Positions 12,746 to 52,174 of a stretch of 64,000 nt of DNA are shown piece by piece. Origin of the DNA: a bacterium (GTDB taxonomy: Bacteria > Zhuqueibacterota > QNDG01 > JAFGCO01); contig JAFGCO010000065.1 of assembly GCA_016932575.1 (NCBI GenBank), positions 20,465-84,464 of the forward strand, read 5' to 3'. How positions within the stretch are numbered: the first letter of the stretch is position 1; each line of letters starts with the position of its first letter. A program made the position numbers and the translations under genes. The notes beneath the pieces were generated by a model. The model saw only the letters and a list, made by a program, of their open reading frames with translations, made no database searches and was not told the origin of the DNA.

Positions 12746-12790
12746 AGGTTGTGTTCTCCTCAAAATTCAAAACCATTATCCCGCCTATAA

Positions 12791-14164: not shown

Positions 14165-14178
14165 AAAAACCTCTGCAT

Positions 14179-15279: not shown

Positions 15280-15308
15280 AATGAGTCCTTTACAGTATGA
15301 ACCAATCA

Positions 15309-21600: not shown

Positions 21601-22039
21601 GATCCAGTGTGTTTTCAATCACTTCGATGATATAGAATCCGGACTCGCCGTCCGCCACATAGATACAGCCATCTTGATAGGCAATCCGGCGGGCCGAGCC
21701 TTCCGTATAATAATGCCCGAGTTCGTAAGGTGAAGTAATGCTCGACCGGTCCAGCATATAAATACCGATGTCTTTGACTGCCACATAAATTTTAAAAGAT
21801 TGATAATAAATATCCTGAATCAATCCGGGAAATTCATATCTCGAATAACGGCCATCCGGATTGGTGGCATCCAAAATATCGAGATAGCTGCCGTTGCCCA
21901 TGTATAAAGCATCCGCAGTGGCTACGACCGATCGGCAGGGACCACTGGCCCATCGGGCGAGTAAAGATAAATTATCAACCTGCTGCGCCAGCAATGACAT
22001 TGAAAACGCTGATAATACAGCAATTATTTTCCTTTTCAT
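15653..22039 (-). CDS. Giant secreted surface protein B (~2128 aa), paralog of A. It has an LVIVD-repeat propeller, three [ASH-Ig + LamG] modules, a conserved pre-CTD module and a type A T9SS CTD.
   Basis: Start refined to ATG ([20 protein letters not shown]) with AGGGAG 5 nt upstream; the track start is a GTG. Ig-like: '[26 protein letters not shown]', '[26 protein letters not shown]', '[26 protein letters not shown]'. LamG: '[10 protein letters not shown]..LYLNG', '[10 protein letters not shown]..LYLNG', '[10 protein letters not shown]..LYLDG' plus 'MDE(M/I)R(L/I/F)S'. Shared pre-CTD motifs: '[10 protein letters not shown]', 'GYWIY', 'DHSDW'. CTD: '[36 protein letters not shown]...[23 protein letters not shown]'. 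Confidence 0.8.
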   Translation of the reverse strand: [2128 protein letters not shown]

Positions 22040-22075
22040 AATCACTCCCTATAGGAATTATGAACTCATTGTTTA

Positions 22076-23641: not shown

Positions 23642-24352
23642 TCACTCCATTTGCCGCTTTTTTTCTGCAATACGCAGAATTGCATCTTTCGCTTGTTGAA
23701 ATTCAGGCTCGATTTCCAGAGCTTTTTTATATTGTGAATAGGCTTTCTGAAGCTGATTCTGATCCTCAAAACTCAGACCTTCTGAAAACAGAACCACCGC
23801 CTCAATCTTCAGGGTCTTTCCTGAATCCAACATTTTACTTTCTGACTTGGTTAACCGCACAGAAAGGTCATCCAATAATTTCTTGCTCAGCTTTTTAATC
23901 AAAGACAGAATTTGCCGGGTTTTTCCTGTAGTTTCTTCTGCCTTGACCACCGATCCGGTCTCTACTTCTACAATGCGCAGATCGATACGGATTTTATCAC
24001 CGGGCATCACCATATAACTGCCAAATACCAAATTCTTTGCACCCAGCATTTTACCAACCTGAATTGAAGTTGATTCAGAAATCAGTCCCGACTGCACCAT
24101 TTTCAATTCATCCAGCATCTCCTGCATCCGCCGGCGTTCTACCATTTTGACCGATTCGATCCGACTTAACTCGGTGATCATCATCTCTGCCAGGCCCTGA
24201 GATAACGCGGCATAAGCATCCGCGTTCATAAAAGACCTGTTTTCGAAATCGAGAACTGCCAGAGTGATCGTATCACCATAAATGGCCAAACCGGCGAACA
24301 ATAAAAAATTGACAATCAGTATGCGGAAACAGAATTTCATAATCGCTTTCAA
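23642..24352 (-). CDS. Secreted CsgG/LpoB-like domain protein with a C-terminal TPR-like helix pair. It is the first gene of the super-operon.
   Basis: Signal peptide, then 'ITLAVLDFENRSFMNADAYAALSQGLAEMMITELSRIESVKMVERRRMQEMLDEL'. C-terminus 'YSQYKKALEIEPEFQQAKDAILRIA'. Confidence 0.55.
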   Translation of the reverse strand: MKAIMKFCFRILIVNFLLFAGLAIYGDTITLAVLDFENRSFMNADAYAALSQGLAEMMITELSRIESVKMVERRRMQEMLDELKMVQSGLISESTSIQVGKMLGAKNLVFGSYMVMPGDKIRIDLRIVEVETGSVVKAEETTGKTRQILSLIKKLSKKLLDDLSVRLTKSESKMLDSGKTLKIEAVVLFSEGLSFEDQNQLQKAYSQYKKALEIEPEFQQAKDAILRIAEKKRQME

Positions 24353-34212: not shown

Positions 34213-35745
34213 TTATTCAATCTGCGAAATCAGCATTTCAACCTTTTCCTTCAGATACACATACACCTCATCGCTGATATGTTTGCCTTGCTGGGCCTTC
34301 AGTTCATTCAAAAATGCATTTAACACGTTCAGTACCTGATCTGTCTTTTCTTTTTCAAGCTGTTTCTGAGCAGTCTCCAGCTTGACGATCAGGCTGTTGG
34401 CGAGACCTGAGGTATCGATGTCGCCCTGTTCTGATTGTTTGTTGATATACTCAATAAGGTGATTAATCGATACATCTGAATTTGAAATTTTATCAAACAA
34501 CCATTTCGAATTGTAAGATAATAACAATTGTCCTTCATTTGTTATTTTTATCCCTGTATCTTCTTCTATTTCATTCAACATTGACTGTAAAATGTTCTCT
34601 GCTAACTGATTTTCCCCTTGCTCAATATGTGATTTTGCTGTTGTCAGATAATCTAAATATTTATCTAATGTTATTTGATCTGCAATCCAACCTTTCTCAA
34701 AAGCATCCTGCAAATCATCAGCAAGTAAAGCAATTAATTCAACATCAGATTGCTCTTTAGAAATATCAACAGACAATGGCTTTTCTGGCATATCAGAGCA
34801 ACAATAATAAATATTTTCAGGGTAATTATCAAATAATAACAATTCTCCTTCTGGTGGCAATCTTAATCGTCGCTTTAATATGGCCGATTTTGAATCAAAA
34901 ATATAAACATTCCCCGGTCTATACTCAGGAGGAGTATTTGGATTATCATCTATAACAAACTGAACTTCCTCAATAATTACATTCTGAGCATCAGGCGAAA
35001 GATATGCTTTGGATCTCCAAGGAAAGGAAATAGATTCAAAGCACTCTGCCTGGTCAGGGTCACATACTAAATAATACCTATTTTGATAGCTTTCTCCATA
35101 TGAAAAAACAATTAAAGCTTTCCCATCTTTACTGTCTCTAATCCCGGTAATAAAATGAAAATTCGTTAAATCGCCACATTTCATGCTCTCATTCAGAATA
35201 CCGCCATTTAAATCAGTGACTTGAAAGAATATTCCTTCTTTTTTTGGCAATAATCGATAAATTTTAGTTTCATCTTCCGATAAAAACGGCTCGCAATAAG
35301 AATATATTCCATATAATGTGTCCAAATGTGCAAAAGAATTACGATCAAACACAATCGTCATACAGGGTATTCGATCCACATCACCCAAAACCAAAATCAA
35401 TTTGTTGGTTTTTGGCGCATCGAGTATCTGCAGAATTTCATCGTCTCGTGTTTTGGACATGATTTCTGTCCTGTTATTCAAATCATTGACATCGAAAGCA
35501 TAAATCTGGGAACGATCTGTATAGATCATTTTTTGCTGGTCAGGAGTGGTAAATAATTGCAATCCAATATAACAATCCGTTAATACATCCTCACTGACTC
35601 CTGTTTCTAAATCAATCCGGGAAATGTTTCTGTTGTTCCAATGACCTGAGAAAAAATATTTATAGGGTTGCGCATTCAATAGTTCTACGGATAATAACAA
35701 ATTAATGCTCAAAATATAATTGATGAAAACTCTATAGCGATTCAT
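34213..35745 (-). CDS. Secreted hypothetical protein with a beta-propeller-like N-terminal region and two C-terminal FIMAH-like four-helix modules.
   Basis: Signal peptide. The N-terminal ~330 aa are beta-rich with repeated 'IY.FD'-type strands. C-terminal repeats 'DKYLDYLTTAKSHIEQGENQLAENILQSMLNEIEE...' and 'ANSLIVKLETAQKQLEKEKTDQVLNVLNAFLNELKAQQGKHISDEV' match the FIMAH consensus from memory (…L..KL..A.KQLEKGN…A…L.AF…V.AQSGKHI). Confidence 0.5.
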   Translation of the reverse strand: MNRYRVFINYILSINLLLSVELLNAQPYKYFFSGHWNNRNISRIDLETGVSEDVLTDCYIGLQLFTTPDQQKMIYTDRSQIYAFDVNDLNNRTEIMSKTRDDEILQILDAPKTNKLILVLGDVDRIPCMTIVFDRNSFAHLDTLYGIYSYCEPFLSEDETKIYRLLPKKEGIFFQVTDLNGGILNESMKCGDLTNFHFITGIRDSKDGKALIVFSYGESYQNRYYLVCDPDQAECFESISFPWRSKAYLSPDAQNVIIEEVQFVIDDNPNTPPEYRPGNVYIFDSKSAILKRRLRLPPEGELLLFDNYPENIYYCCSDMPEKPLSVDISKEQSDVELIALLADDLQDAFEKGWIADQITLDKYLDYLTTAKSHIEQGENQLAENILQSMLNEIEEDTGIKITNEGQLLLSYNSKWLFDKISNSDVSINHLIEYINKQSEQGDIDTSGLANSLIVKLETAQKQLEKEKTDQVLNVLNAFLNELKAQQGKHISDEVYVYLKEKVEMLISQIE

Positions 35746-35766: not shown

Positions 35767-36960
35767 TTAATTCCACGGAGGACTTTGGTAAGTATCCCAT
35801 GCATTATCACCGTAGCCACTACGGCCCGGTCTAGGTATCCATTGACCACCAGTATTTGGATCTTCAGGTTCACCAACAGGAATCCATTGCCATTGATGTC
35901 CACGATTATACAACTGGAATGCTTCTTTTAGTATTTGTTCATTCGTTGTAAACTCTGTCACATTTAAATAACATGGAGGCAATTGTCCACTTTGAGCCAG
36001 ATTTCTTAACCGACCAGGATAACCCAATCCCCAATTTCTTTTTTCATTAAAGACGGCAATACATCTGGAACGATTAGCCGGCCAATTCCATAATTCGTGA
36101 ACTGTTGCAGGCGGGTTGTCAATTTGACCTATTCCATAACCACCAGGTGGACCATATAACGGATTGCCATTACTGTTAAATTGACGAAACCTGGATTCAT
36201 GATACATTATCACCTGTATCTCAAGACCAACACCTGCCCTTGCCTGTTCAGGTGTTGGATTTTCTCCTTTTATTCTTCTGATGTTTGATGCATCGTATAT
36301 ATATTGCTTATCTGCTTCCGCTAAAACATGTATTGATACATCACCGCCAATAAATATATTATCATTGTTTTGATTCCATGTAGTTGGATTAGCGTTCATT
36401 GCAGTTGAGTTACCTTGAAAAATATGCCTTTCGGTTCTTGTCGGCAGGGTACATTCAACCTTATATTCCCATAAATACTGTACGATGCCCTTTTTATAAT
36501 TTTTTAAATAGGCTTTACATATATCATGGGGCATTGATGGAACATTTTCAATAATCAAATCAGGTGCGCCTGCCAATGGTTCTGTAACAATGAGTTCAAT
36601 TTCTTCTCCCAGCGGCGCCACAATCAATGAGTCCTCGTTTGTGGTATGCAGCCAGGTCGGTTCTTCTACTGTAAACCTCACCCAGGTAGGTTCATCCGGA
36701 TTTTTACCCACCACAACATAATTTATCCTTCCTGTATAAAGCTTTTCATAAGTCGTCAAATATTTGACTGTCTGGATCTGATCCGAATCCATGGGACTGT
36801 TTTTTGCAAAGATAAACTCCATCAATTGCCCGAGACTATCCACGTCTTCACAGTTCTGAACAATATCGATACTGTCCCGAATCACAATTTGGCCCTTTAT
36901 CGAAGCATTTAACACAAGTATACAAAATAATACCGAGAAAAAATATCTATTATTCATCAT
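35767..36960 (-). CDS. Secreted hypothetical protein with lytic-transglycosylase (SLT)-like motifs and a Trp/Pro/Gly-rich C-terminus.
   Basis: Signal peptide. 'YHESRFRQFNSNGNPLYGPPGGYGIGQID' resembles SLT motifs I–II (ES … GLMQI) and 'AFQLYNRGHQW' resembles the AYNAG motif, but the spacing is longer than canonical. The tail reads 'WQWIPVGEPEDPNTGGQWIPRPGRSGYGDNAWDTYQSPPWN'. Confidence 0.45.
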   Translation of the reverse strand: MMNNRYFFSVLFCILVLNASIKGQIVIRDSIDIVQNCEDVDSLGQLMEFIFAKNSPMDSDQIQTVKYLTTYEKLYTGRINYVVVGKNPDEPTWVRFTVEEPTWLHTTNEDSLIVAPLGEEIELIVTEPLAGAPDLIIENVPSMPHDICKAYLKNYKKGIVQYLWEYKVECTLPTRTERHIFQGNSTAMNANPTTWNQNNDNIFIGGDVSIHVLAEADKQYIYDASNIRRIKGENPTPEQARAGVGLEIQVIMYHESRFRQFNSNGNPLYGPPGGYGIGQIDNPPATVHELWNWPANRSRCIAVFNEKRNWGLGYPGRLRNLAQSGQLPPCYLNVTEFTTNEQILKEAFQLYNRGHQWQWIPVGEPEDPNTGGQWIPRPGRSGYGDNAWDTYQSPPWN

Positions 36961-38794: not shown

Positions 38795-38947
38795 CCCGCG
38801 TCCAATCAGTGGGTTCCGTACCAATGACTGATTCTGTTCCGGTTCTGTTTTTAAAGGCAAGATTACATAACAAAGACGGATCATTAAAATACTTATACTG
38901 TTCGCTGAGCAAAAGACCATAAGGTATCAGGAATGAATGGCTGTTAA

Positions 38948-39889
38948 TTGATGTCTGTTACCAAACGGAGTTCTCTATTTATCATGCCAATCTGCGCCAT
39001 GCATCCAAAAATACCGATCCTGAAAGATCGCATTAAAAAGGCCTATGAGCTATTAAAACACTGTCAACTTTGCCCCCGTCGATGCGGCGTAAATCGTATA
39101 CAGAATGAATTGGGATACTGCGGTGAGGGCCTGATTCCCAACGTTGCTTCCGACAACCTGCATTACGGAGAAGAACCTCCCATATCTGGATTTCAGGGAT
39201 CCGGAACCCTGTTTTTTGCAGGCTGCACCATGCGCTGTGTCTATTGCCAAAACTATCCTATTAGTCATATGGGACATGGGCATCCTGTACAAATTCCGCA
39301 ACTTGCCGATATGATGCTGCACTTGCAGAAACGCGGAGCACACAACATCAATCTTGTCACACCGACTCACTTTATACCGCAAATTATTACTGCACTTTAC
39401 ATCGCTTACCATAATGGTTTAATCCTCCCCATAGTATACAATACCAGCGGATTTGAATCCGTGAAAGTCCTGAGATTGCTCGAGGGTATTGTAGATATCT
39501 ACCTTCCGGACATGAAATACGCCAATGATAAAATCGCCCGGAGCTTAAGCAATACTCCCAATTACCCTGAAATCAATCAGGCTGCCATTCTTGAAATGTA
39601 TCGGCAGGTCGGACATTTAAAACGCAACAAACAGGGAATAGCGATCAAAGGACTGATCATTCGTCATCTTATGCTTCCCGGAGAAGCATCGGGTACAAAA
39701 TCTGTCCTTCAATGGATTGCGGAAAATCTGAACACCGAAACGCATATCAGTCTCATGAGACAATATTTTCCCACATATAAGGCTTTGGACATTCCGGCAT
39801 TAAATAAAAAAATATCTCACGAGATATACATGGCCGCAGCTCGATATATGCAAAAGCTGGGTTTTAAGAACGGATGGCTGCAGGATTAA
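38948..39889 (+). CDS. Radical SAM enzyme, PflX-like (pyruvate-formate-lyase-activating-enzyme-related) family.
   Basis: CX3CX2C 'GCTMRCVYCQNYPIS'. There is an extra N-terminal Cys cluster 'CQLCPRRCGVNR...GYCG'. Confidence 0.7.
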   Translation: MMSVTKRSSLFIMPICAMHPKIPILKDRIKKAYELLKHCQLCPRRCGVNRIQNELGYCGEGLIPNVASDNLHYGEEPPISGFQGSGTLFFAGCTMRCVYCQNYPISHMGHGHPVQIPQLADMMLHLQKRGAHNINLVTPTHFIPQIITALYIAYHNGLILPIVYNTSGFESVKVLRLLEGIVDIYLPDMKYANDKIARSLSNTPNYPEINQAAILEMYRQVGHLKRNKQGIAIKGLIIRHLMLPGEASGTKSVLQWIAENLNTETHISLMRQYFPTYKALDIPALNKKISHEIYMAAARYMQKLGFKNGWLQD

Positions 39890-40045
39890 ATGTCCGATTC
39901 GATGTTTATTATTCTGATAAAGCGCTTGAAAAATCTCCAAATACTGGCATGAAATATGCAATAAAAATATAGTCACTAGTTAAAGATATCGGCTATTATT
40001 CACCATGGATATTCCAGTCTTCCCCAAGATCCGGATGCAAAAGCA

Positions 40046-42256
40046 ATGAGCTTAAAACCTGAAGAGATTATTCTTTTTAAAGTTGTTATCAAAGATCTTT
40101 TAATCAGTGTGAAAAACGGCACACTGTATGATTTTGATCATCCCATTTATCTTTTATCCATCCGAAAATTAAAAGACTCTATTGAAGAATGGTTTAAAAT
40201 TCAGAAAAAATTCATCCTTGGATTCTCGTCAAATCGTATTCTCATGAATTCTGAGCTGATTGAAAGCAAGGATGAGTTTTTATTTGAACTGGCCAGATTG
40301 TTACATGCCAGAGGCATTCTTTCAGTAGAATTCAGCCAGTCCGTTGAAGTGAAGGAACTGGCAGAATTTGTGTCTCATCTAAAAATGGAAACACCCGGTC
40401 AGGATGAAGAAATAGAAACGGAAGATTGGACAAAAGGCCTTCCAAATATCAAAATCAGCGAACTGGATTACCGGCTGCTTCTCACCAACAAATCTTCTGA
40501 GTATACAACCGAAGAAGAGGAAGTCTGGGCGAAGCTGTTTCGCATGGATCTTTCTCTGGAGGATGGCCTTTCCAAATCAAACATTGAATTAATGCTCAAT
40601 TTTTTCAACGCCCCGACTGAATCCGCATCATTTTTGAATAAAATCTATCACGAAGCGCTTCGGAAAAAAACGGAAAAGCAGGTTGTTGACACATTTCAGC
40701 AGGCCGTTTTCAACATATGTGAATATTTCCAGGGCCAATCCAAACCCGGAGAACAGAAAGAATTTAAGGTAAACCTTGCAAAGATTGTATCACGGCTTCA
40801 TCCGGATTTGATTTCACAACTTTTTGAAAGCACTGTCATCAATGGAAAAAATTTCGATATTTCCCGTGAATTGCTCAGTGATTTTACGGATCAGGACGTT
40901 GCTGAATTTATCCAGTCATTGGTTCGCCAGGATGGATCGATCAATGAATTTCTTTTGAAAATTTTTCAAAAAATGGTGACCAGCAATCAAGACGCCCAAA
41001 ATGTATCACCGCTGGTCATGGACCAGTTATTCAGTAAACATATTATCAATCCTCAGTCATTTAAACGAATTCAGCTTTCCATCAAAGAGCTTTTCAAGGA
41101 TCATCCGCAAAACCACTTTCTCAACGAGATGTACAAAATCACAGTCGATGCGCTTAGCGACAGCAGCGCAAATACATTGAAATATTCTGTGCGAATGGGA
41201 CCTCTGGTTAATCAGTTTGTTAAAACATACGAGGAAGGATTTTTTGGCGAAGAAAAAGCCTGGGTGCTGTTGAAAACATTGTCATCAGAAGAAAACTACA
41301 TCGATTTTCAGAAAATCGGAGAACGGCTTCTGGAGCTTTTTAGAGTACTGCTCGATAAACAGGATATCAGTGTCATCAGACATCTGCTGACGTTTTATGT
41401 TTCAGAAATTGCATCGCCCTCAGAAAGAGGAGATTCACCACTTAACCGTGAAAAAAATGCTCTCTTTAATAAAATGGTGCATGAAGATAATTTAAAAATC
41501 ATTATCAATCTGATTCCGGAAGGCTCAAAAGGTGTCCTGAGCCATATTTTGCAGATTATGCTGATTACAAAATCGGCATCGGCGCCCCTTCTGATTGACA
41601 CCTATCTGCATACTTCGAGTCCGCCGGTACGAAATAAACTGCTTTATATCTTTTCACAAATGAAATCCGCCATCAAATCCGAAGTCAACAGACGGATAAA
41701 TAGTAGCAAACCAAAAGAGGTCAGAGATTTATTTAAAATTTTACAGGTCTGCGATCCTGATAAAATAAATCTCGCTGCCCGAAAAATGATTAACCAGAAA
41801 GATACATCATTATTATGGGACGCTCTGGAGCATTTTATTCCCAAAACACAGGAAGATACCCGCCAGGTTATCGCGCTTTTTTTTAAGCACGACAATCCGG
41901 AAATTCAAAAAAAGGCAGCCGTCGCCATACTGAAATCGAATAACAAATTATTTATTGAGGATTTATTTAAACGGACAAACAAAACATTTATCTCAAAAAA
42001 GTGGCTGAACAATCTTATTCACTGGAGCAGAGAAGTTAAATCGGAGCATGTATTTCAGGAATTAGATAAAGTATTCCAGAAGGAACCCGGTATTTTTAAT
42101 AAGCTAAATGATAATATGCGTCTTAATGCTTTTAAAAATATGTGTCAGATTGACACGAATAGATCCATTCAATCCTATAAATCAATGCGAATTTCAGATA
42201 ACGATCCATTAGCACAAAAATGTCAAAAAATTATAGCAAAATATAAAAAATCTTAA
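40046..42256 (+). CDS. Hypothetical all-alpha (HEAT/ARM-like) protein. Its N-terminal ~110-aa module is shared with the next gene.
   Basis: 736 aa with no TM segment and helical-repeat character. Its stop overlaps the next start (TAATG). Confidence 0.5.
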   Translation: MSLKPEEIILFKVVIKDLLISVKNGTLYDFDHPIYLLSIRKLKDSIEEWFKIQKKFILGFSSNRILMNSELIESKDEFLFELARLLHARGILSVEFSQSVEVKELAEFVSHLKMETPGQDEEIETEDWTKGLPNIKISELDYRLLLTNKSSEYTTEEEEVWAKLFRMDLSLEDGLSKSNIELMLNFFNAPTESASFLNKIYHEALRKKTEKQVVDTFQQAVFNICEYFQGQSKPGEQKEFKVNLAKIVSRLHPDLISQLFESTVINGKNFDISRELLSDFTDQDVAEFIQSLVRQDGSINEFLLKIFQKMVTSNQDAQNVSPLVMDQLFSKHIINPQSFKRIQLSIKELFKDHPQNHFLNEMYKITVDALSDSSANTLKYSVRMGPLVNQFVKTYEEGFFGEEKAWVLLKTLSSEENYIDFQKIGERLLELFRVLLDKQDISVIRHLLTFYVSEIASPSERGDSPLNREKNALFNKMVHEDNLKIIINLIPEGSKGVLSHILQIMLITKSASAPLLIDTYLHTSSPPVRNKLLYIFSQMKSAIKSEVNRRINSSKPKEVRDLFKILQVCDPDKINLAARKMINQKDTSLLWDALEHFIPKTQEDTRQVIALFFKHDNPEIQKKAAVAILKSNNKLFIEDLFKRTNKTFISKKWLNNLIHWSREVKSEHVFQELDKVFQKEPGIFNKLNDNMRLNAFKNMCQIDTNRSIQSYKSMRISDNDPLAQKCQKIIAKYKKS

Positions 42257-43656
42257 TGCCGATGAATGACAACTCACTTCCTATAAGAGACCAGATCGAA
42301 GCGCTGATTATCCGCCTCGCTAAAGCGTCTAAAATGTACAGTATTTATCAAAGCGATCACAAGCTGACGGGGGATATTTGTATCCAGCTGTTTGAGCTGC
42401 TGGAAAAAATCCTGATAATGCGTCGTGAAGTGACCATTGGTATCATATCCGATGAACTGGCATTCGAAAAAAAACCGTTTCTTGAAACCAGCGCAAAGGT
42501 CAGCGATTTTATTGACCGGTTAACAGAAAAAGGATTGAAAAAAATTACTTTCTGTCAGGGGATTATCCAAGAAGAAATTATCAAATTTATTGATATTATC
42601 TCTGAGGTCGCAAAACATAAAAGAACTTTTGAAGAGACACTGCAACAATTTGAAAAACAAAATATTATCCATATTAAAATCGGCCATATCAGTCTGGAAG
42701 AAGAAGAACTGCTGCTATCCGGCGCCGATGATGTCAGGGGCCTGGCCGATAAAAGTTTTAAAAGGGGAGTAAAAACGATTGATCGTCAGCTGCAGAATAT
42801 TATCGACAATAAACCAGTAGATATGGAATCAATCCGGCTGATTGCGGCTGCCCTGGTAAATTGTATGCTTGTGAATAAATCATTACTGATGATGCTGACT
42901 TCAATTAAACTGAATGATGAAGAAAAATACATTCATAATTTGATCGTATGCGTATTTACACTGCTTCAGGCCGAAATGCTGGGTATCGACCGCAAATATT
43001 TTGTGGATATTGCCTCGGCTGCACTTTTACATAATATTGGTATTCTATCTGCCGAAAAGACACTGGATATCGAAGAAATTAAAAAACAGGACAAGGCATT
43101 TATTGACGGCGTTATTCAGAATGGTGTAAAAATTCTGATCAACACGGAGGGTATCACACCTCTGGCACCTCTGGCCGCTCTTGAATATCCAATCCCTTAT
43201 AAAAAATCCAAGCAGGGGAATCCTATTCATAATAAAGGATTGAACCTGATCAGCATGTTTATCACCATTTCCCGATATTATGACAGATTACGAAGCCTTC
43301 CCGAATACCAAAAGGATTCAGGACTCGAAAAAATATATGAAAAAATGATGTCCATGAGTGATATTCAGTTCCATCCCGATCTTTTGGGTAACTTTTTTAA
43401 TGTAGTCGGACTTTATCCACCAGGTTCTATGGTGAAACTGGTTACAGGAGAAGTTGGCATCGTAATTCAAAACAGTATCGTTGACATTCATCGGCCCACC
43501 GTGGAAATTATATACGATGCTGCAGGACGGGAATATCCCCAACCGAAAACACTCAATCTTCTGGAAAGAAACCGCGAGGGAAAATTTAAATGTTCCATTC
43601 AGCATTCGATCGCCTACAATTCAAAATATAAAATACCTGAAAAAGTCTCAAAATAA
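42256..43656 (+). CDS. Degenerate HD-GYP-like domain protein (HD→HN, GYP motif absent). The N-terminal module is paralogous to 40046..42256.
   Basis: 'DIASAALLHNIGIL' corresponds to the HD-domain 'AALLHDIGK' motif with D→N. The downstream region lacks HHExxDGxGYP. 'ISMFITISRYYDRLRS' resembles the HD-GYP 'VADVYDALTS' helix. Confidence 0.5.
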   Translation: MPMNDNSLPIRDQIEALIIRLAKASKMYSIYQSDHKLTGDICIQLFELLEKILIMRREVTIGIISDELAFEKKPFLETSAKVSDFIDRLTEKGLKKITFCQGIIQEEIIKFIDIISEVAKHKRTFEETLQQFEKQNIIHIKIGHISLEEEELLLSGADDVRGLADKSFKRGVKTIDRQLQNIIDNKPVDMESIRLIAAALVNCMLVNKSLLMMLTSIKLNDEEKYIHNLIVCVFTLLQAEMLGIDRKYFVDIASAALLHNIGILSAEKTLDIEEIKKQDKAFIDGVIQNGVKILINTEGITPLAPLAALEYPIPYKKSKQGNPIHNKGLNLISMFITISRYYDRLRSLPEYQKDSGLEKIYEKMMSMSDIQFHPDLLGNFFNVVGLYPPGSMVKLVTGEVGIVIQNSIVDIHRPTVEIIYDAAGREYPQPKTLNLLERNREGKFKCSIQHSIAYNSKYKIPEKVSK

Positions 43657-43711
43657 ATGTTTTTTCATTCATAACAAAATAGAAGAATACGATTTATTTT
43701 AAAAAATATGA

Positions 43712-45484
43712 ATGGCCGTGAAGACAATTCGATTTAAAATTCTTTTCATTTCAATAGCCGGCTGGGTCTGTATCAGTGTTTTTCTTCTCACCGCCTTGCA
43801 TGCACCGATTCTTTATTATTATATTTGCGCTTTTCTGATATTGTCAGGTTCTCTGACTTTATTTTTCATGATTCGCCGGCAATCTCAACTGATCAATTTG
43901 ATTTCGAGCGGTTTGGATATTATAAAATCCGGCAATTATAAGTATCGAATGGGAATTGAGCGTCCGGATGTATTTGGACAAATATCCCAATCTGTGGATC
44001 ATATGGTTGAAATACTCGAGAAAAACGAAAAAGCTTCTCACGATCTCGAGATGGACAATGAGGTTCTTGTAGACCGTATCCGTGAGACACACAGCATTCA
44101 GGAGCGCTTTCAACGGCTGTTTGAAAATCCCAATTACGGTATTTTCTTATGCGATTTTGAAGGCATGATTATCGATGTGAATGCCACCGGATGCAATCTT
44201 CTCGAATATACCAAAGAGGAACTGCTCCATTCCTCATTTTACAATTTATATGCACCTGAAGAACTAACACGTTCAATTAATGCCACAAAAATAGGCGATC
44301 GTCAGCAAGCCATCCGATTCGAGTCCAGGATGCAGACAAAAAATCAGAAAATACTGGATGTTGAAATCAGCTCGAATATTTATGATTTCAAGAATGAAAT
44401 CATTCAAAATATTGTATCGGATATTTGTCAGCGGAAACAGATGGAATCCGAACTGAGACATTCAGAAGAAAAATTTCGGTCTTTCATGGAATCTGCCAAT
44501 GATTTAATGTTTATCACAGATACTTCAGAAACCATCGTTTATGCAAATCAGGCAATGATACAAGCACTGGGCATGTCATTGGAAATTCTGCAAACGAAAC
44601 AGCTCTCTGATCTGATATATTCAGAGTCAGAAGAGACAGAAGATCAAAGTAAAAATGAAGATCATGATGGAGCGATGCGGGAACTGATATGGAAATCGAA
44701 AACCACCGGTAAAATTTATGGGGAATTGATTACCTCTGTCATTCTCAACGATCATAATGATCCTATCGGATTAAGGGGCGTATTCAGGGATGTGACAGAA
44801 CGAAAAAAAATCGCCGAATCCCGCCGCCTGGCTCAGCTCGGAAAGCTTGTTGCTGACGTTGCCCATGAAGTAAAAAATCGTCTCATGGCAATTCTGGGCA
44901 TTGTTGAATATATCCTTCTCGAGTATAACAAAGATCCTGAAATAAAAAATGACATGCTGATGATTCATGAAGAATGCAGGACAATGGATGATTTTGTGAG
45001 GCAAATGCTGAACTTTTCTAGACCAAGCGAAGGTATTTATGTCGAAACAGATATCCATGCTGTCCTGGATTCGGTATTAAGACTGCTTTCTAAATCACTT
45101 CGCCGCGATCAAATACAATTAAAGAAATCTTATGACAAAAAAGCACCCAATGTGAAAGTCGATGAAAAACAAATGAGCGAAGTCTTCATGAATTTAATAC
45201 AGAATGCACAGGATGCTATGGAAAAAGGAAGCGCTCTCGAAATCATTACATCCTTTAAAGACGGCCAGGTTTATGTCGATATCAAAGACCACGGCGCCGG
45301 CATTCCCGAAGAGTACCTTGGAAAAATTTTCGATCCGTTTTTTACGACCAAAGATACAGGAACCGGTTTAGGCGTATCCGCCTGTTACGGAATTATTCAT
45401 TCACATGGTGGAGAATTAACCTATACAAGCGAGATGGGCAAAGGCACCACAGCGCATGTCATCCTTCCGGCATCAAATTCCTGA
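43712..45484 (+). CDS. Membrane sensor histidine kinase with a HAMP-like linker and two PAS domains.
   Basis: Two N-terminal TM segments. H-box '[18 protein letters not shown]'. N/G boxes '[10 protein letters not shown]', '[22 protein letters not shown]', '[18 protein letters not shown]'. No response regulator is adjacent. Confidence 0.8.
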
Positions 45485-45563
45485 TAGCAAATAAATTCAC
45501 TCTTTATCACAGTAAAGTAACATCTATTTCTTATTTTCCGATGAATCATCTGCCATAAACACG

Positions 45564-48467
45564 TTGATTTTAATGGAAAAAAGTTGTATTATTCAGGTCA
45601 AGATGAAAAGTATGCTGACCATGTCTCAAGACCTGTTGGAAGGCGACTTTATCTCAGTTGATCTCGAAACCACTGGTCTTGATCCTCAAACAGATTCCAT
45701 TATTGAAGTGGGCATGGTACGAATAGCGCAGGGAGATATTTGCGAAACTTATGAGCAGTTGATTAATCCTGGAATAACCATTCCTTCTCCGATTACACAG
45801 CTTACAGGCATCCAAAATCAAGATTGTCAGGATCAACCCGTACTTGAAGCGGTTTTTCCGGACATTCTGGAATTTATCGGGGAACAGTGGATTATCGCAC
45901 ATAATGCAGATTTTGATTTTGATTTTCTCAATCAGGCAAAACGAAAGCTGGCACCCCGTACAGCGAGATTAGCCTACAATCGTGTAATAGACACACTTAC
46001 CCTGTCCCGCTTATTATTGCCCTGGCTGCCCAACCATCGGCTCGATACCATCTGTGAGTTTCTAAAAATTCATGAAAAACCCGAACATCGGGCGCTTGCA
46101 GATGCAAAAGCAACAGCCCTGATCTTTCAAAAATTAATGCACAGAGCCCGCTCATTGAGTCTTGCTCAGGTTGAAATTATCATTACCCTGTTACATGGAG
46201 CCAAACACGGGCTCCGTTTGTTTTTTGAGAAAATCAAAAATTATATCGAGGCTTATGGCTCGACTCAAGCCCCTGCAGTAACCATGCCCAATAATATTCT
46301 GGGCCATATAAAAATCTCAGAAAAACAGGTAAAAAACGGAAAAATAGATGAGAAGACCATCGAATCGTTCTTTAATAAAAATGGACCATTGAGCAGTCAT
46401 CTTGATGATTATGAGCAACGGGAACCGCAAATTAAAATGGCCAAAACCGTCGGTCAGGCCCTGAATCGCCAGGAATATATGCTGGCTGAGGCCGGAACCG
46501 GTATTGGTAAATCCATGGGCTATCTGGCACCGGCCGTACTTTGGATCAGTGAAAATCCGGAAAAATGCATTATCGTATCCACACATACCAAAACTTTACA
46601 GGATCAACTCTTTCATAAAGAGCTCCCCCTTCTTCAAAAAATATATCCTCAGAAATTTTCAACAGTGCTGCTAAAAGGACGCTCAAATTATCTTTGCAAG
46701 CGGCGCTATATTCAATTGTTAACCCAGCTTCTTGAAAGACTGTCACCCGCTCAGCAGGTCCAATTACTGCCACTGGTTGTTTGGGCCGAAATGACCGTAA
46801 CCGGAGATATTGAAGAAAACGCCGGATTCCATCGAAATTCCAACAATGCCTTATGGTCCCAAATTAATTGTGAGCAAGGACATTGTCTGGGCACTCAATG
46901 TGCCTTTTATCAGGAATGTTTTTTACAGAGAATAAGAAAGTCGAGCCGGTTTGCCAATTTTGTTATCATCAATCATGCCCTGCTTTTTTCGAGTCTGATG
47001 CAATCCCATTCAATCCTCGGTGATTTCGACTCATTAATTGTGGATGAGGCGCATCAAATGGAACGAGTTGCTTCTCAAAATTTGGGGATTGTTCTCAGTA
47101 TGGGATTGTTTTGGGATACGATACATGGGCTCTATCAATCTAAACCAGAAGAGGTTGGCATTCTGATAGTGCTCAAGCATATTATGGCAATCCAGCAAAC
47201 TGACATTCCCAATTATAAAGAAATGAATAATCAAATCCATGTGCTGATCCAGCTGGTCATTACAGTTTTCCAGCACGCACAGCACTTTTTTCAGAAACTG
47301 GATGCATATACCGGCAAGCGTATTCAGCAAAACGGTGCACAGACCCGGATTCGATTACGTCATGCATCAGAATTACAGCAGGCTCTGGGTATCGTACTCG
47401 GACAAACCATACAAGCAGTGGAAAGTCTTTCTGATGAAATGCAGATTCTTATATCCCGTTTGATATCCCTGAATCTTTCGGAAAAATCAGAACTGGAAAA
47501 TCTGGAGCAAGAGTTATCCACTGTGTTTGATCGATTATTTCAACTCAGGGCGTATTTAAACCATTTCCAGGAAGCTGATTACAATGAACATATCATCTGG
47601 TGTGAAAAAAGGATTTATCATGACAATCAGGATGTCATACTGACTTCGGTACCTTTGAATATTGCGGACATTCTGGCCAATACGCTGTATTCTAGACTGA
47701 AACGATGCATTTTAACATCAGCCACGCTGACAGTAGGCAATCAGTTTGATTATATAACGGGCCGCCTGGGTTTCGATAAGGTCGATAAAGATCGCCTTCG
47801 CACACAAATATTTGGTTCTCCATTTCATTATCCGGATCAGGTCCTGTTCCTCATACCCTCTTTTCTGCCCTATCCCAAAGCCGATTCTTATACATATCGT
47901 ATCGGGTGTTTTATTGAATCGGTCATCCGAACTCATCCCAGGGGAACACTGGTATTGTTTACATCTTATAAAATGCTGAATGAAGTGCATGCGAATATTC
48001 AACCGAAATTGGAAGCGCAAGGTATCGAAGTTCTGGGACAAGGCATCAGCGGATCTCATTCAGCCATCCTAAAATCATTTATAAAAAAGGAACAATCTGT
48101 ACTGCTGGGTACAGCAAGTTTCTGGGAAGGTGTGGACGTACCGGGCAAGTCACTGGAAATACTGGTGATCACACGAATCCCCTTCGATGTACCCACCGAC
48201 CCATTGGTGGAGGCCCGTATGGAAGAGGCGGAAAAAAAATTCGGAAGCGGATTCTTCCACTATGCGGTTCCAGAAGCCATTGTTAAATTCCGTCAGGGAT
48301 TCGGAAGGCTGATCCGTACTGCTGGAGATCGTGGCGTGGTCCTGCTTCTGGATCAACGGGTGATTAAAAGTAAATACGGGCAGCTTTTTCTGTCTTCCCT
48401 ACCTGTCCCGCCGGTGGTCTGCGATTTGGAGCAGCAAGTTATGGAACAATTACAAAAATGGTTCTAG
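45564..48467 (+). CDS. dinG: Bifunctional DnaQ-like 3'-5' exonuclease / DinG-family ATP-dependent DNA helicase.
   Basis: Exo I '[13 protein letters not shown]', Exo III '[14 protein letters not shown]'. Helicase Walker A '[10 protein letters not shown]', DEAH 'LIVDEAHQM', C-terminal 'FWEGVD'. Confidence 0.85.
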
Positions 48468-48544
48468 AAAATAGCAGGATTTTTAATGTAAAACGAAAAA
48501 ATAAAACAAGTCAGACTAATTTTATAAATATGGGGACGACAATA

Positions 48545-50005
48545 ATGGAAAAAAAAATTGTCATGGAAGGGCTCACATTCGATGATGTTTTGCTGATCCC
48601 TGATAAATCGGATGTCATACCAAATGAAACAGACCTGCGAACCCGTTTAACTCGTAATCTTTGGGTGAATATTCCCCTCATCTCTGCGGCTATGGATACA
48701 GTAACCGAATCGCGGCTGGCCATTGCTATTGCAAGAGAGGGCGGTATCGGAATTATTCATAAAAATCAGTCGATTGAAAACCAGGCCGCACAGGTGGATA
48801 AAGTAAAACGATCAGAAAGCGGTATGATTTTCAATCCTTTATCTCTTTCTCCAAAGAAAACCATTCAAGATGCACTGCAGTTAATGCATCAGTACCATAT
48901 CAGCGGCATCCCGATTGTGGATGGTGAAAAACTTGTGGGCATATTGACAAACCGGGATATCCGTTTTCTAACAGAACTGGATCAGCCTATTGAGAATGTG
49001 ATGACAAAGGAAAATTTGATTACGGCGCCGATAGGCACAAAACTGAATGAGGCTGAAAAAATCCTGCAAAAACACCGGATTGAGAAACTGCTGATTGTGG
49101 ATGATACCGGCAAGCTGCGCGGTCTGATCACTGTAAAAGACATTCAAAAACGAAAAGCTTTTCCTCATGCAGCAAAAGATGAATCGGGCCGTCTTCTTGC
49201 AGGTGCCGCAGTTGGCGTGTCAAAGGATACGATGAACCGGGTATTGGCCCTTCGGGATGCAGGAGTGGATGTGATATGTGTGGACACAGCTCACGGCCAC
49301 TCAAAAGGTGTATTTAAAACAATTCAAACCATCAGAAAAGAATTCCCTGATATTGAATTGATTGGCGGTAATGTGGCAACCAAGGAGGGCGCTCTTGTGT
49401 TGATTAAAGCGGGAGTGGATGCCGTGAAAGTTGGTATTGGACCGGGATCGATTTGTACCACGCGAGTTGTGGCTGGCGTGGGAGTACCTCAACTTTCCGC
49501 TATCATGCAATGCACGGAAATATGCCAGAAACATAATACCCCTCTCATCGCCGATGGCGGCATCCGGTACTCCGGAGACATTGCCAAGGCCATTGCCGCT
49601 GGTGGCGATACAGTTATGCTTGGATCTATTCTAGCAGGGGTTGAAGAGAGTCCCGGCGAAACAGTCCTTCTTGAAGGACGCAGCTATAAAGTCTATCGTG
49701 GCATGGGATCTTTGGGCGCCATGGCCGAAGGAAGCGCGGATCGTTATTTTCAGGAAAGTGCCGAACGCAATAAATTGGTACCAGAGGGTATCGAAGGACG
49801 TGTCCCCTACAAAGGACGGCTTTCAGATGTGGTGTACCAGCTGGTGGGCGGTATTCGTTCTTCTATGGGATACTGCGGTGTTCGTACCATACAAGAAATG
49901 AAAAACAAGACGCGGTTTGTGAAAGTGACTGAAGCCAGTGTACGAGAGAGCCATCCGCACGACGTCACGATTACAAAAGAAGCTCCGAATTATCAAAGAG
50001 GATAA
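48545..50005 (+). CDS. guaB: IMP dehydrogenase.
   Basis: Start refined to [20 protein letters not shown]. Tandem CBS domains. Catalytic loop '[21 protein letters not shown]', '[12 protein letters not shown]'. Confidence 0.9.
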
Positions 50006-50006
50006 A

Positions 50007-50043
50007 AAAACGGACAATGCTTTTTTACTCGTCCGTTTTATTT
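50007..50043. terminator. Bidirectional terminator between the convergent guaB and rpsT genes.
   Basis: aaaacggac / gtccgtttt stem, 15-nt loop, A-run upstream and T-run downstream. Confidence 0.45.
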
Positions 50044-50185
50044 CAATGCTCAAAATATCGTGGATAAATCTTTGATGGGTATTCAGCACTCATATCAAAA
50101 CAGAAGCTGTGCCGGTATTTATGCGCCCACCTTTCTGCATCATGGTAAAGTTTACATTAACCAGAACCAGGAAAACAAGACCGGA

Positions 50186-50440
50186 TTATTGAATACTATT
50201 AACCATTCTTGTCAATTTGGATTTGATATTGGCTGCTTTATTTTTATGAATAATACCTTTTACTGCCATACGATCCAAAAGGCTGGCTGTTTTTTTCAAT
50301 TCAACAGCTGCGGATTCTTTATCCGGTGCATTTTGGACCTTTTTAATAGCGTTTTTCATTTTCGATCGCTTTTGAACATTTCGCATACGTCTTGTTTCAT
50401 TTTGTCGAGTACGCTTTTCAGCCGATTTATGTTGTGGCAT
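50186..50440 (-). CDS. rpsT: 30S ribosomal protein S20.
   Basis: 'MPQHKSAEKRTRQNETRRMRNVQKRSKMKNAIKKV...' is a canonical S20 N-terminus. 84 aa. Confidence 0.9.
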   Translation of the reverse strand: MPQHKSAEKRTRQNETRRMRNVQKRSKMKNAIKKVQNAPDKESAAVELKKTASLLDRMAVKGIIHKNKAANIKSKLTRMVNSIQ

Positions 50441-50525
50441 AAATACCCCTGTCTTGGTTCAAATTAAACAGAGAAAAATATACGAAAATTCATTTTGTAT
50501 GTCAAGGGAATATTTATAAAACTCC

Positions 50526-51134
50526 ATGTTTTATCTTTTGTTAGGCTTAACTATAATCGCCTTGTTGTGGATTATTTTTGGAACTTATCGAATCACAGCA
50601 TATGGCGAAATCAGAAAAGGGCATTGGTCTCTTACAATTGGCCTTGTACGCTTTAAATATCTGTTTACGATTAAATGGCAAAATCAATCTTCTGGTAAAA
50701 ATAAACTTATGATCACAATTTTTACAATGTCCGTTCCCGCCAGAATTAGGGCGCGTGAGAAAAAAAATGAAAAGAATCGTTTTGAGATTTCAGTCAAAAA
50801 TCTGTTTGGCCAATCAAAAAGAAATTTACAGAAAATATCAACCCTCTCTCCCCTGATTCTAAAATTGCTGAAAAAAATAAAGGTGATGGAGTTGAGCATC
50901 AATGGACAAATGAGCCTATGGGATCCTGCAACATCAGGGATTATTTACGGATTGTCACAGTGGGTACGCAGTTACCCGATTTCACCGGTGGATATCCGTA
51001 TCTATCCCCTGTTTTATCCTGATGAAAGTGCCGCAATATGTCATTTGAAAATTAAATTCTGTGTGGCTTCAATTTTATATTTAATGTTCCGGGAACGTCA
51101 TATCTGGAAACCGATGATTTCCGGAAACCGATGA
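50526..51134 (+). CDS. YtfI-like (DUF2953) membrane-anchored protein.
   Basis: N-terminal TM 'MFYLLLGLTIIALLWIIFG'. It sits immediately upstream of, and is translationally coupled to, a GerW/YtfJ homolog, as ytfI–ytfJ are in Bacillus. The assignment rests on context and architecture. The sequence is weakly recognisable. Confidence 0.4.
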   Translation: MFYLLLGLTIIALLWIIFGTYRITAYGEIRKGHWSLTIGLVRFKYLFTIKWQNQSSGKNKLMITIFTMSVPARIRAREKKNEKNRFEISVKNLFGQSKRNLQKISTLSPLILKLLKKIKVMELSINGQMSLWDPATSGIIYGLSQWVRSYPISPVDIRIYPLFYPDESAAICHLKIKFCVASILYLMFRERHIWKPMISGNR

Positions 51135-51148
51135 TAAGGAGGCAATCA

Positions 51149-51523
51149 ATGGTTATTCAGGATCTGGTAAAAACGGTGCTTAAAGAGTTGCGTGAAATAT
51201 CCAAAACACAAACCGTGGTCGGAGATCCCATTAAAGTGCAGGCGGCCACTGTAATTCCTGTCTCTAAGGTATCTTTGGGTTTTGGCATTGGAGGTGGAGA
51301 AGGTTCCGAAAAATCCAGCGCCTATGAGGGAACAGGCGGCGGGATCTCCATTGAACCACAAGCGTTTATAGTCGTTCAAAATGAAAAGGTGGAACTCATT
51401 AGCCTGAAAAAGACAGGTACGGCATTGGGTGAAGTGGTTGATCTGGTTCCCAAAGTACTGGATCGGATGCAAAAAATGAAAAAGAAAAACAAATCCTCTT
51501 CCGAATCGGGAGAAAAATCATGA
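51149..51523 (+). CDS. GerW/YtfJ-family protein (DUF2758; sporulation-associated in Firmicutes).
   Basis: AAGGAGG ribosome-binding site. 'TVVGDPIKVQAATVIPVSKVSLGFGIGGGEGS...GGGISIEPQAFIVVQNEKVELISL' closely matches the GerW consensus (…IGEP…VIPVSKVSFGFG.GG……GGG…P.A.IVV…V.L…). Confidence 0.7.
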   Translation: MVIQDLVKTVLKELREISKTQTVVGDPIKVQAATVIPVSKVSLGFGIGGGEGSEKSSAYEGTGGGISIEPQAFIVVQNEKVELISLKKTGTALGEVVDLVPKVLDRMQKMKKKNKSSSESGEKS

Positions 51524-51714
51524 AACAGCATCGAAAGCATGATCAGGAAGATTTGTTTGGGCTTTCTGAATTAGATACACTGAAACGTCAAATCAAAGAG
51601 ATGGATCAGCAAATCTCCCATGCATTAAAGGCCAATGATTACACAGAAGCCAAAAAACTCACAGACCAGCAGGCGGAGTTGCTTCAAGCACTGGTTGAAA
51701 AAGGGGAAATATAA
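51520..51714 (+). CDS. Small coiled-coil hypothetical protein (64 aa), translationally coupled (ATGA) to the GerW gene.
   Basis: The ORF start overlaps the upstream stop. The content is charged and helical. Confidence 0.35.
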   Translation: MKQHRKHDQEDLFGLSELDTLKRQIKEMDQQISHALKANDYTEAKKLTDQQAELLQALVEKGEI

Positions 51715-51721
51715 TTGACTC

Positions 51722-52174
51722 ATGGTAAATTGCATTGTTGAAATATGCCAGGAAGCTGGCTGCCAGGATCTCCCGATTCCTCACTACCAGACCGAGGGAT
51801 CTTCTGGTATGGACTTGTATGCGGCCGTGGACAAACCAATAACAATACAACCAGGTGAAGTTATGCTGGTGCCGACTGGCATACGCATAGCTCTCTCTCC
51901 CGGTTATGAAGCACAGGTGCGTCCCCGTAGCGGTCTGGCCCTCAAACATGGAATCGGCCTGCTGAACAGCCCGGGCACAATTGATGCCGATTATCGAGGG
52001 GTCATCGGAATTATTCTGTTTAATTTCGGCCGTGCTGTCTTTACGATCCATCGTGGTGACCGGATCGCTCAGATGGTCATTGCCAGAGTGGAGAACGCCA
52101 AAGTCAAAGTGGTTCGTGTATTACCGGAAAGCGCCCGGGGCAATGGCGGTTTTGGATCTACAGGAAAGCAATGA
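51722..52174 (+). CDS. dut: dUTP diphosphatase.
   Basis: 'SSGMDLYA', '[12 protein letters not shown]', '[17 protein letters not shown]', 'GDRIAQMVI', '[10 protein letters not shown]' are the five dUTPase motifs. Confidence 0.9.

Follow-up and report, generated by a model that had tools for sequence, protein, structure and literature searches.

A conserved gene pair encoding a HEAT-like protein and an HD-GYP protein, the latter degenerate in the lineage described here, and probably coupled to a PAS histidine kinase

HD-GYP proteins are the less understood class of phosphodiesterases acting on cyclic di-GMP (c-di-GMP). Degenerate members of the family, namely Bd1817 of Bdellovibrio, HnoD of Shewanella, PA2572 of P. 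aeruginosa, ECA3548, and DvhD of Desulfovibrio vulgaris, are already known, so that an HD-GYP pseudo-enzyme alone is not new. PA2572 is such a degenerate protein (YN-GYP) and receives its input through a REC domain. HnoD, likewise addressed through a REC domain, inhibits the phosphodiesterase HnoB (Galperin & Chou preprint). In Bd1817 ('HD-G?P', inactive), the metal ligands are kept and only the Tyr of the GYP motif is missing (PMC4159591). DvhD has SQ for HD and MN for HH, and binds c-di-GMP free of metal and without hydrolyzing it, holding the nucleotide by K582 (the Lys of HDxGK), Y621 (the Tyr of GYP), and R650 plus Y652 (RPY; PMC13090378). In the active enzyme PmGH, the metal centre has eight ligands and also binds a phosphate, c-di-GMP is contacted by Y285, R314, and K317, and a single Ala at D222, H250, H276, H277, or K225 abolishes activity (PMC4159591). 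The three-gene operon described here lies in a 64,000-nucleotide stretch of a bacterial contig (JAFGCO010000065.1; this whole stretch is referred to as the window). Its first two genes encode a HEAT-like and a degenerate HD-GYP protein, both opening with the same kind of domain (N-dom), and its third encodes a histidine kinase. The locus is best read as a conserved two-subunit module of the c-di-GMP pathway, in which an enzyme was turned into a scaffold or regulator, and which is probably coupled to the kinase; the probability of this composite reading is put at roughly 0.6.

The three open reading frames (ORFs) are all present as stated in a first-pass annotation of the window:

40046..42256, + strand: gene 1, 736 aa; N-dom, conserved helical middle, and HEAT-like C-terminal region (this architecture is called g1-type)
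42256..43656, + strand: gene 2, 466 aa; N-dom, helical stalk, degenerate HD-GYP, and C-terminal beta domain
43712..45484, + strand: gene 3, 590 aa; membrane-anchored PAS-PAS histidine kinase (from Pfam, NCBIfam, motifs, and hydropathy)

Gene 1 ends with AAA TCT TAA and gene 2 starts with ATG CCG ATG, and these stop and start codons bear out the TAATG overlap that had been noted for the two genes. As homologues of gene 2 begin at the equivalent of Met3, its true start may be 42262; whichever start is used, the spacing between genes 1 and 2 is ~0–6 nt, and that between genes 2 and 3 is 55 nt. For the same pair in relatives, values from 8 nt of overlap to 6 nt of spacing were seen. Related loci (L numbers; P numbers denote proteins) were gathered through protein look-ups, a genome scan (one peptide pattern, 6 loci), and a metagenome scan, and were annotated with in-family hidden Markov models (HMMs). 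Genes 1 and 2 are neighbours wherever the sequence suffices: a g1-type gene is directly followed by a gene encoding N-dom plus HD-GYP in 24 of 24 distinct loci with enough downstream sequence, and three further loci end too early to judge. At the junctions with listed gene calls, the two genes overlap by as much as 23 nt or are separated by as much as 33 nt, and the stop and start codons usually overlap. Such pairs were seen in the window's unclassified clade, in Omnitrophota, in Nitrospiraceae, and on metagenome contigs; what lies upstream of them is unrelated from locus to locus, and only the closest relatives of the window have downstream flanks in common. The reciprocal test, which set out from a canonical g2-type protein (N-dom plus HD-GYP; P0126), also found a g1-type gene upstream. 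The gene 1–gene 2 pair is ancient and widespread. A literature search on HEAT repeats and HD-GYP found no paper with such a pairing in its title or abstract, and the invariant pair of genes for a HEAT partner and an HD-GYP protein appears to be undescribed. In locus L016 (6406–8785), the g1-type gene seems to be split into an ORF for the N-dom (6406–7242) and an overlapping ORF for the rest (6998–8785; 595 aa); a genuine split would account for this, as would a frameshift or an error of assembly.

The part of gene 2 that follows the N-dom and stalk was resolved into these features:

42871..43410, + strand: degenerate HD-GYP domain, gene 2 residues ~206–385 (from Foldseek, family profile, and ligand comparison)
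43030..43035, + strand: former HD dyad, now H259-N260 (AALLHNIGIL), from alignment to PmGH H221/D222
43411..43620, + strand: C-terminal beta-rich domain, gene 2 residues ~386–455, with the motif GLYPPGxxVxLxxGE

The HMMER check suggested in the first-pass annotation found HD and HD_5 only in the relatives of gene 2. The window protein itself reached neither Pfam HD (PF01966) nor HD_5 (PF13487) at E ≤ 0.1 and matched an NCBIfam model for an HD-GYP response regulator weakly (E 4.9e-4), and phmmer with gene 2 against the sequences in the PDB returned nothing relevant; its homologues (24–39% identity), in contrast, carry PF13487/PF01966. The profile of the gene 2 family matched HD-GYP structures in the PDB at E 6e-27 to 1e-8, namely, V-cGAP3, PmGH, PA4781, Bd1817, and DvhD (4mcw at 1.8e-26 and 5z7c at 6e-27). 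When the AlphaFold2 (AF2) model of gene 2 (mean predicted local distance difference test score, pLDDT, of 79.9) was searched with Foldseek, the top 15 matches were all HD-GYP structures (including 3tm8, 4mcw, 4r8z, 9rbz, and 5z7c; probability 1.00 for active HD-GYPs), the best being Bd1817 (3TM8; E 3.6e-5), and no other kind of structure reached significance. Gene 2 thus shares a homologous domain and fold with the active HD-GYPs (PmGH 4MCW, TM0186, PA4781, and V-cGAP3), and some of its paired relatives have every ligand plus GYP.

In gene 2 of the window, however, the active site is largely gone. The catalytic positions were mapped on PmGH by alignment and hmmalign, and correspond as follows (PmGH residue, role, state in gene 2):

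E185, metal ligand: E, kept
H189, metal ligand: H, kept
H221, metal ligand: H, kept
D222, metal ligand: N
H250, metal ligand: deleted
H276, metal ligand: Y
H277, metal ligand: P
D305, metal ligand: R
K225, stabilizer of the metal centre and needed for activity: I
GYP motif (Y285), contact to c-di-GMP: absent
R314, contact to c-di-GMP: P

Five of the eight metal ligands are therefore missing, and so are K225, the GYP motif, and R314. The alignment confirms that the HD dyad has become HN and that HHExxDGxGYP is missing, both of which had been seen in the letters before; the loss of metal ligands is wider than had been noted (5/8 plus K225). The segment in the place of HHExxDGxGYP reads LEYPIPYKKSKQGNP, and the residues aligned to the motif are EYPIPYKKSKQGNP, with K-Q-G at the positions of GYP. 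HN in place of HD is found throughout the window's clade (P0002–P0010). As Ala substitutions at positions lost here kill the activity of PmGH, it is safe to predict that gene 2 is devoid of c-di-GMP phosphodiesterase activity.

Beside its lost residues, gene 2 differs from active HD-GYPs in having an N-dom, not GAF, REC, or DUF3391, and an obligate HEAT-type neighbour gene. Bd1817, too, is a non-catalytic protein of the HD-GYP family in which long linker helices accompany an N-terminal domain, but its ligands are kept and its N-terminus is DUF3391, whereas the ligands of gene 2 are lost and its N-dom opens with two long helices. With DvhD (9RBZ/9RC0), which is also among the Foldseek matches, gene 2 has in common a degenerate HD-GYP without HD and HH ligands and a non-enzymatic role; DvhD, however, keeps K582, GYP, R650, and Y652, of which gene 2 has the Tyr only, and, being a transmembrane PAS-HD-GYP protein, it belongs to a Lap-like adhesin system and has neither N-dom nor HEAT partner. 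HnoD, PA2572, and ECA3548, which exert their regulation by contacting other proteins, resemble gene 2 as dead HD-GYPs in kinase-controlled c-di-GMP networks; compared with HnoD and PA2572, gene 2 has N-dom instead of REC, plus a partner gene with the paralogous domain. Its C-terminal beta domain, in which strands are predicted for residues 392–451 with a pLDDT of ~90 (AF2), occurs in 32 of 39 N-dom HD-GYP proteins and also in P0016, a protein without N-dom. A comparable unannotated beta-barrel follows HD-GYP in proteins of Leptospira (PMC12943098).

Gene 2 is under strong purifying selection and not decaying. Compared with the 81%-identical orthologue in L019, dN/dS was 0.064 over the whole gene, 0.037 over the HD-GYP domain, and 0.029 over the stalk linker, values that are approximate because dS (1.3–2.8) is near saturation; the dead HD-GYP domain is thus the second most constrained part of gene 2, after the stalk linker. 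That metal centre and c-di-GMP contacts were lost in a gene so strongly constrained suggests that its product acts as a pseudo-enzyme. The paired loci cover the whole range in this respect: the HD-GYP is fully canonical, with all ligands and GYP, in L008, L016, L026, L030, and L035; it lacks H250, and mostly also H277, in L006, L011, L013, L025, L027, L032, and L033; and it is fully degenerate, with differing patterns, in others (HN in the window's clade, NN-K in L007, and further ones among cluster representatives). The differing substitutions (L007, P0033, P0041, P0054, P0070, P0071, P0114, and P0160) argue for several independent losses, and the range from canonical to degenerate within a retained pair indicates that catalysis was lost repeatedly while the pair persisted. 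A conserved module with a pseudo-HD-GYP is the part of the overall reading that is very likely to be correct. One homologue of gene 2 (P0007; alignment columns ~191–233) carries an exact internal duplication of ~33 residues at the junction of stalk and HD-GYP (RLVSAALVNCLFVNKSLLLMLTSIKLLDEKKYI); P0008 and P0009 are otherwise identical but lack it, so that it probably arose very recently or as an artefact of assembly.

What the proteins of the pair have in common is the domain at their N-termini:

40046..40465, + strand: N-dom of gene 1, residues 1–140, with conserved Y28, H32, E104, and F108 (N-dom HMM, E 7e-47)
42256..42690, + strand: N-dom of gene 2, residues 1–145, with conserved Y31, H35, E107, and F111

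BLASTP of gene 1 against gene 2 gave no N-terminal match. Profile-profile alignment (hhalign) of their first 150 residues, with profiles built from collected and aligned homologues of either gene, gave a probability of 98.3% and an E-value of 2.3e-14 over 132 columns at 16% identity. The paralogy that the first-pass annotation had seen in the first ~110 residues therefore stands at the profile level, although the domain extends over ~140 residues rather than ~110. In the joint alignment, a Tyr, a His, and a Glu are invariant across both families, and a Gly and a Phe are nearly so. The N-dom of gene 2 is modelled (AF2, pLDDT 88.7) as two long helices, a beta hairpin, two helices, a strand, two helices, and a strand. 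No Pfam or NCBIfam model matched the N-dom in the window proteins, in ten diverse relatives, or, at E ≤ 10, in 14 N-dom sequences, and no solved structural neighbour was found. According to the preprint of Galperin & Chou, the N-terminal regions of HD-GYP proteins are mostly unannotated; N-dom is not among the associated domains listed in this main survey of HD-GYP architectures. N-dom appears to be undescribed, as does its occurrence in both partner proteins.

DUF3391 (PF11871) was considered as a candidate for N-dom and rejected: it matched neither gene 1 nor gene 2 at E ≤ 0.1, none of 14 N-dom sequences at E ≤ 10, and none of 10 diverse family members, and the predicted topology opens with two long helices, unlike DUF3391, for which the same preprint gives four strands followed by two long helices. 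The last helix and strand of N-dom align locally, weakly, and at low confidence to Bd1817, so that a very remote relationship between N-dom and DUF3391 is conceivable.

An exhaustive HMMER search with the N-dom profile among 1.84 billion cluster representatives yielded 6,466 matches at E ≤ 1e-3 and 2,299 at E ≤ 1e-10, which fall into two main length classes (~715–760 aa and ~450–470 aa). Among the 169 retrieved N-dom proteins, ~100 are g1-type (N-dom, middle, and HEAT-like C-terminus, ~715–760 aa), 39 are g2-type (N-dom and HD-GYP with or without the C-terminal beta domain, ~450–470 aa), and 16 contain N-dom in tandem. The domain splits into g1 and g2 subfamilies, and these are so sharply apart (held-out members differ by 70–100 bits) that an old duplication, inherited together, is indicated. 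The tandem copies within single proteins belong to neither subfamily. A Rosetta-stone argument from these tandem proteins was therefore discarded, the copies not being assignable to the g1 or the g2 type. The tandem proteins include ones of ~1,400 aa that combine GGDEF, an AAA_16/STAND NTPase, two N-doms, and HEAT (L036/L037, 6001–10317, from a Desulfobacterales metagenome-assembled genome; further P0069, P0073, P0096, P0103, P0113, P0124, and P0145). Such a protein has no HD-GYP neighbour at its locus and stands alone; a diguanylate cyclase joined to a STAND switch and an N-dom/HEAT module is itself unusual.

That the pairing of g1 with g2 is mediated by N-dom has about even odds. A more far-reaching proposal is tentative and, in our estimate, would rather fail than hold: N-dom would be an undescribed, very widespread signalling domain (at least 6,466 protein clusters), whose two ancient paralogous forms would constitute an obligate hetero-pair that joins a HEAT-solenoid scaffold to an HD-GYP output and so defines a class of c-di-GMP phosphodiesterases or adaptors with two subunits; a ligand or metal would be sensed at the invariant Tyr-His-Glu, and the module would not need HD-GYP catalysis for its core function, so that the repeated loss of this catalysis would be explained.

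The remainder of gene 1 consists of two regions:

40493..41485, + strand: middle region of gene 1, residues ~150–480 (~330 aa), from alignments and an in-family HMM ('g1mid')
41486..42253, + strand: C-terminal HEAT-like repeats of gene 1, residues ~481–736, from HEAT_2/HEAT_PBS matches of homologues

The middle region contains conserved positions (W161, N198, LHPDL at 251–255, and EMYKITVDA around Y363) and matches no known domain. The earlier description of gene 1 as a protein of helical, HEAT-like repeats draws on its homologues; the window protein itself has no Pfam or NCBIfam match. HEAT_2 (PF13646) was matched in 3 of 7 close homologues (best E 6.2e-13; homologues P0017–P0026 were collected), diverse g1-type proteins match HEAT_2 or HEAT_PBS (PF03130) at 1e-8 to 1e-22, and an in-family HMM ('g1heat') also matches the HEAT regions of the GGDEF-STAND fusion proteins. 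The C-terminal region of the gene 1 homologues therefore resembles bacterial scaffolds of the PBS-lyase/HEAT_2 type, from which gene 1 differs by the additional N-dom and ~330-residue middle, and by always being paired with an HD-GYP gene.

The third gene of the operon encodes a sensor kinase with the following parts:

43733..44020, + strand: two predicted transmembrane helices (residues ~8–55; Kyte-Doolittle) and HAMP-like linker (residues 52–103)
44138..44806, + strand: two PAS domains, residues ~143–228 and 253–365 (PAS_3, PAS_9, PAS, and PAS_8)
44837..45472, + strand: HisKA (376–440, with H385) and HATPase_c (484–587), Pfam 7.5e-7 and 6.4e-23

The H-box with H385 and the N, G1, F, and G2 boxes are intact, as in class I (HisKA) sensor kinases. 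The hydrophobic stretch 5–56 fits two transmembrane helices with a loop of 3 residues, which leaves no periplasmic sensor domain, and sensing is presumably cytoplasmic, via the PAS domains. Of the HAMP-PAS-PAS architecture with two transmembrane helices given in the first-pass annotation, the helices, PAS domains, H-box, and ATPase are borne out, but HAMP remains below threshold in the window protein (17 bits versus a cut-off of 25 bits, E 0.0075), although it is called in orthologues. Within the 64-kb window, no response regulator accompanies the kinase, as had been remarked: phmmer with CheY, Spo0F, and a REC domain from one of the loci as queries detected no receiver domain, nor did Pfam scans of the other window ORFs of ≥130 aa (overlapping antisense ORFs left out). 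The phmmer approach does find REC in L008, L017, L032, and L033. The window likewise contains no GGDEF gene and no additional N-dom gene.

Within the window's subfamily, 13 of the 16 loci that are informative have a PAS histidine kinase in third position. Genes for a hybrid kinase-receiver and a single-domain receiver come after the kinase in L032, in L033, and on the contig of P0011. In Nitrospiraceae (L008), the third gene encodes REC-PAS-GGDEF instead. Membership of the system in the c-di-GMP field, as proposed from the letters, is upheld by canonical HD-GYP relatives, by neighbouring REC-PAS-GGDEF and PilZ proteins, and by the GGDEF-STAND fusions. In L006 (2810–6428, Omnitrophota), the pair lies downstream of PEGA, a GT2 glycosyltransferase, and a PilZ protein, and in L039 (1–6014) directly downstream of type IV pilus genes (PilM, PilO, and secretin); these neighbours are possible output processes of the module.

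The triad is conserved and tightly linked in the subfamily. The suggestion that the pair modulates the kinase derives only from this synteny and is weakened by more distant pairs, in which the third gene is one for REC-PAS-GGDEF or is missing. Direct control of the kinase by the pair, which we infer from gene order, is given somewhat less than an even chance. It is unlikely, on the other hand, that the functional unit consists of genes 1 and 2 only and that the kinase is an acquired operon neighbour, at most co-regulated, with no contact or control. The distant pairs L016, L038, and L039, from which the kinase is absent, the REC-PAS-GGDEF protein in its place in L008, the 55 nt before gene 3 compared with no spacing between genes 1 and 2, and the fact that the kinase sequence holds nothing pointing to the pair would all fit such an arrangement. 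It is harder to reconcile with the persistence of the triad, at intergenic distances that are short where gene calls were listed, from the window's clade to Omnitrophota (g1 proteins 28–32% identical) while the upstream flanks differ among all triads and the downstream flanks are common only within the window's clade. Moreover, the alternative third gene of Nitrospiraceae also encodes a PAS-containing signalling protein, which makes a functional slot more plausible than a neighbour by chance.

The preferred reading, a two-subunit module with probable coupling to the kinase, can be put into mechanistic terms. Its core would be an ancient, translationally coupled gene pair encoding a cytoplasmic signalling module, in which the N-doms of g1 and g2 most likely assemble one complex or co-sense a single input. 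In many relatives, the g2 subunit would be a complete c-di-GMP phosphodiesterase; in the lineage of the window, the HD-GYP subunit would be a structural or allosteric pseudo-enzyme, and probably no c-di-GMP receptor by its canonical site. In this subfamily, the pair would be co-transcribed with the membrane-anchored PAS-PAS kinase, and the g1–g2 complex and the kinase would act in one pathway, either the complex modulating the kinase or the kinase pathway acting on the complex, and response regulators whose genes lie elsewhere would provide the output. The inferred parts of this mechanism are the physical pairing of g1 with g2 through N-dom, the coupling to the kinase, and the direction in which the signal flows.

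Several points weigh against it. The sampled loci are biased to relatives of the window proteins, and the architectures inspected are those of the best 150 of the 6,466 N-dom matches. The kinase is missing from 4 of the 5 most distant loci (L016, L038, L039, and L036 with its fusion protein), which makes the coupling lineage-specific and possibly looser than proposed. The tandem copies, being neither g1- nor g2-type, back pairing through N-dom only in general. A profile of the degenerate clade alone matched no HD-GYP structure in the PDB but weak, L18-like noise at E 0.2–0.8, which shows the extent of the sequence drift in this clade; the alignment from which AF2 modelled gene 2 included canonical HD-GYPs and may have biased the model to their fold; and the estimate of selection suffers from the near-saturated dS.

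An alternative role for gene 2, doubtful and rated slightly below the pair acting apart from the kinase, is that of a receptor without catalysis, in which what is left of the active site would bind c-di-GMP or another cyclic nucleotide, in the manner of DvhD, and the signal would be relayed to the kinase. The precedent of metal-free c-di-GMP binding by DvhD (PMC13090378), the retained and strongly constrained fold of gene 2, and the c-di-GMP contexts in which the family sits are in its favour; a receptor or adaptor role had been predicted in the first-pass annotation. It is weakened by the residues themselves: at the positions of DvhD K582, Y621, R650, and Y652, gene 2 has I, Q, P, and Y, so that one of the four remains; the degenerate clade varies at the Lys position (I, I, I, M, K, L, and A); and the residues in contact with c-di-GMP in PmGH (Y285, R314, and K317) are lacking in gene 2, too. 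With only the Tyr of RPY left as a clamp, binding of c-di-GMP by gene 2 at the canonical site is unlikely; a binding site elsewhere, for example, in the N-dom or the beta domain, is conceivable.

HD-superfamily enzymes with mononuclear sites exist, and the equivalents of E185, H189, and H221 in gene 2, which also retains those of D183 and D308, might form such a site with some activity toward a different substrate. This is very improbable, as the sister lineage (L003/P0007–9) has K and Q at E185 and H189 and yet gene, synteny, and conservation persist, the bridging carboxylate D222 is Asn in the whole clade, and single Ala changes at the lost positions abolish the activity of PmGH (PMC4159591).

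The locus exposes a large unannotated domain family, present both in one subfamily of HD-GYP proteins and in the HEAT-repeat protein that is always encoded directly upstream, and it connects these pairs with PAS histidine kinases, diguanylate cyclases, and STAND NTPases. The series from active-looking to dead HD-GYPs within one conserved pair offers material for the study of non-hydrolytic roles of this domain. If the two proteins form a complex, this would be a c-di-GMP module of a new type, regulated by a subunit or built on a scaffold, and would provide an annotation for thousands of 'hypothetical' proteins, mostly of uncultured Omnitrophota, Nitrospiraceae, and Desulfobacterales. To specialists in c-di-GMP, and to annotation work, the finding offers a useful lead rather than a categorical surprise.

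In the window, the operon is flanked by housekeeping genes: PGI-like and radical-SAM genes upstream, and genes for a DinG-like exonuclease-helicase and IMPDH downstream. No relevant Rfam match (riboswitch or other RNA element) was obtained for 38800–46000, and scans for promoters and terminators found sites no more numerous than in shuffled sequence. The downstream order (window 45564–52051) is kept in L001 and L019, namely, DinG-like exonuclease-helicase, IMPDH, S20, a small ORF, and a YtfJ-like protein, and a citrate synthase gene further downstream is common to L019 and the window. The upstream genes differ, with glycoside hydrolases or a sugar-binding protein in L001/L019 versus PGI and radical SAM in the window, which puts the breakpoint of a rearrangement immediately upstream of gene 1.

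Elsewhere in the window, two genes encode giant proteins of 2,527 and 2,130 aa (5180–12763 and 15653–22045, both − strand) with Laminin_G_3, ASH/HYDIN-type Ig, LVIVD, and FlgD_ig domains, one of them also with Por_Secre_tail, a sorting signal for type IX secretion. Each is followed by a gene for a TPR protein (12791–14164 and 22076–23518, − strand), and the second also by a CsgG-like one (23642–24352, − strand); the interval 12791–15309 (− strand) is also listed with the giant-protein region. These genes suggest that the organism has affinity to the FCB group and secretes adhesin-like proteins of large size. The gene for a 397-aa, secreted-looking protein without Pfam match (35767–36960, − strand) adjoins one for a 510-aa protein that carries a FIMAH domain at its C-terminus (34213–35745, − strand). 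Finally, a 1,560-aa protein (53966–58648, + strand) is a fusion of an AMP-binding (acyl-CoA ligase-like) part with a C-terminal GNAT, with ~800 unannotated residues between the two.

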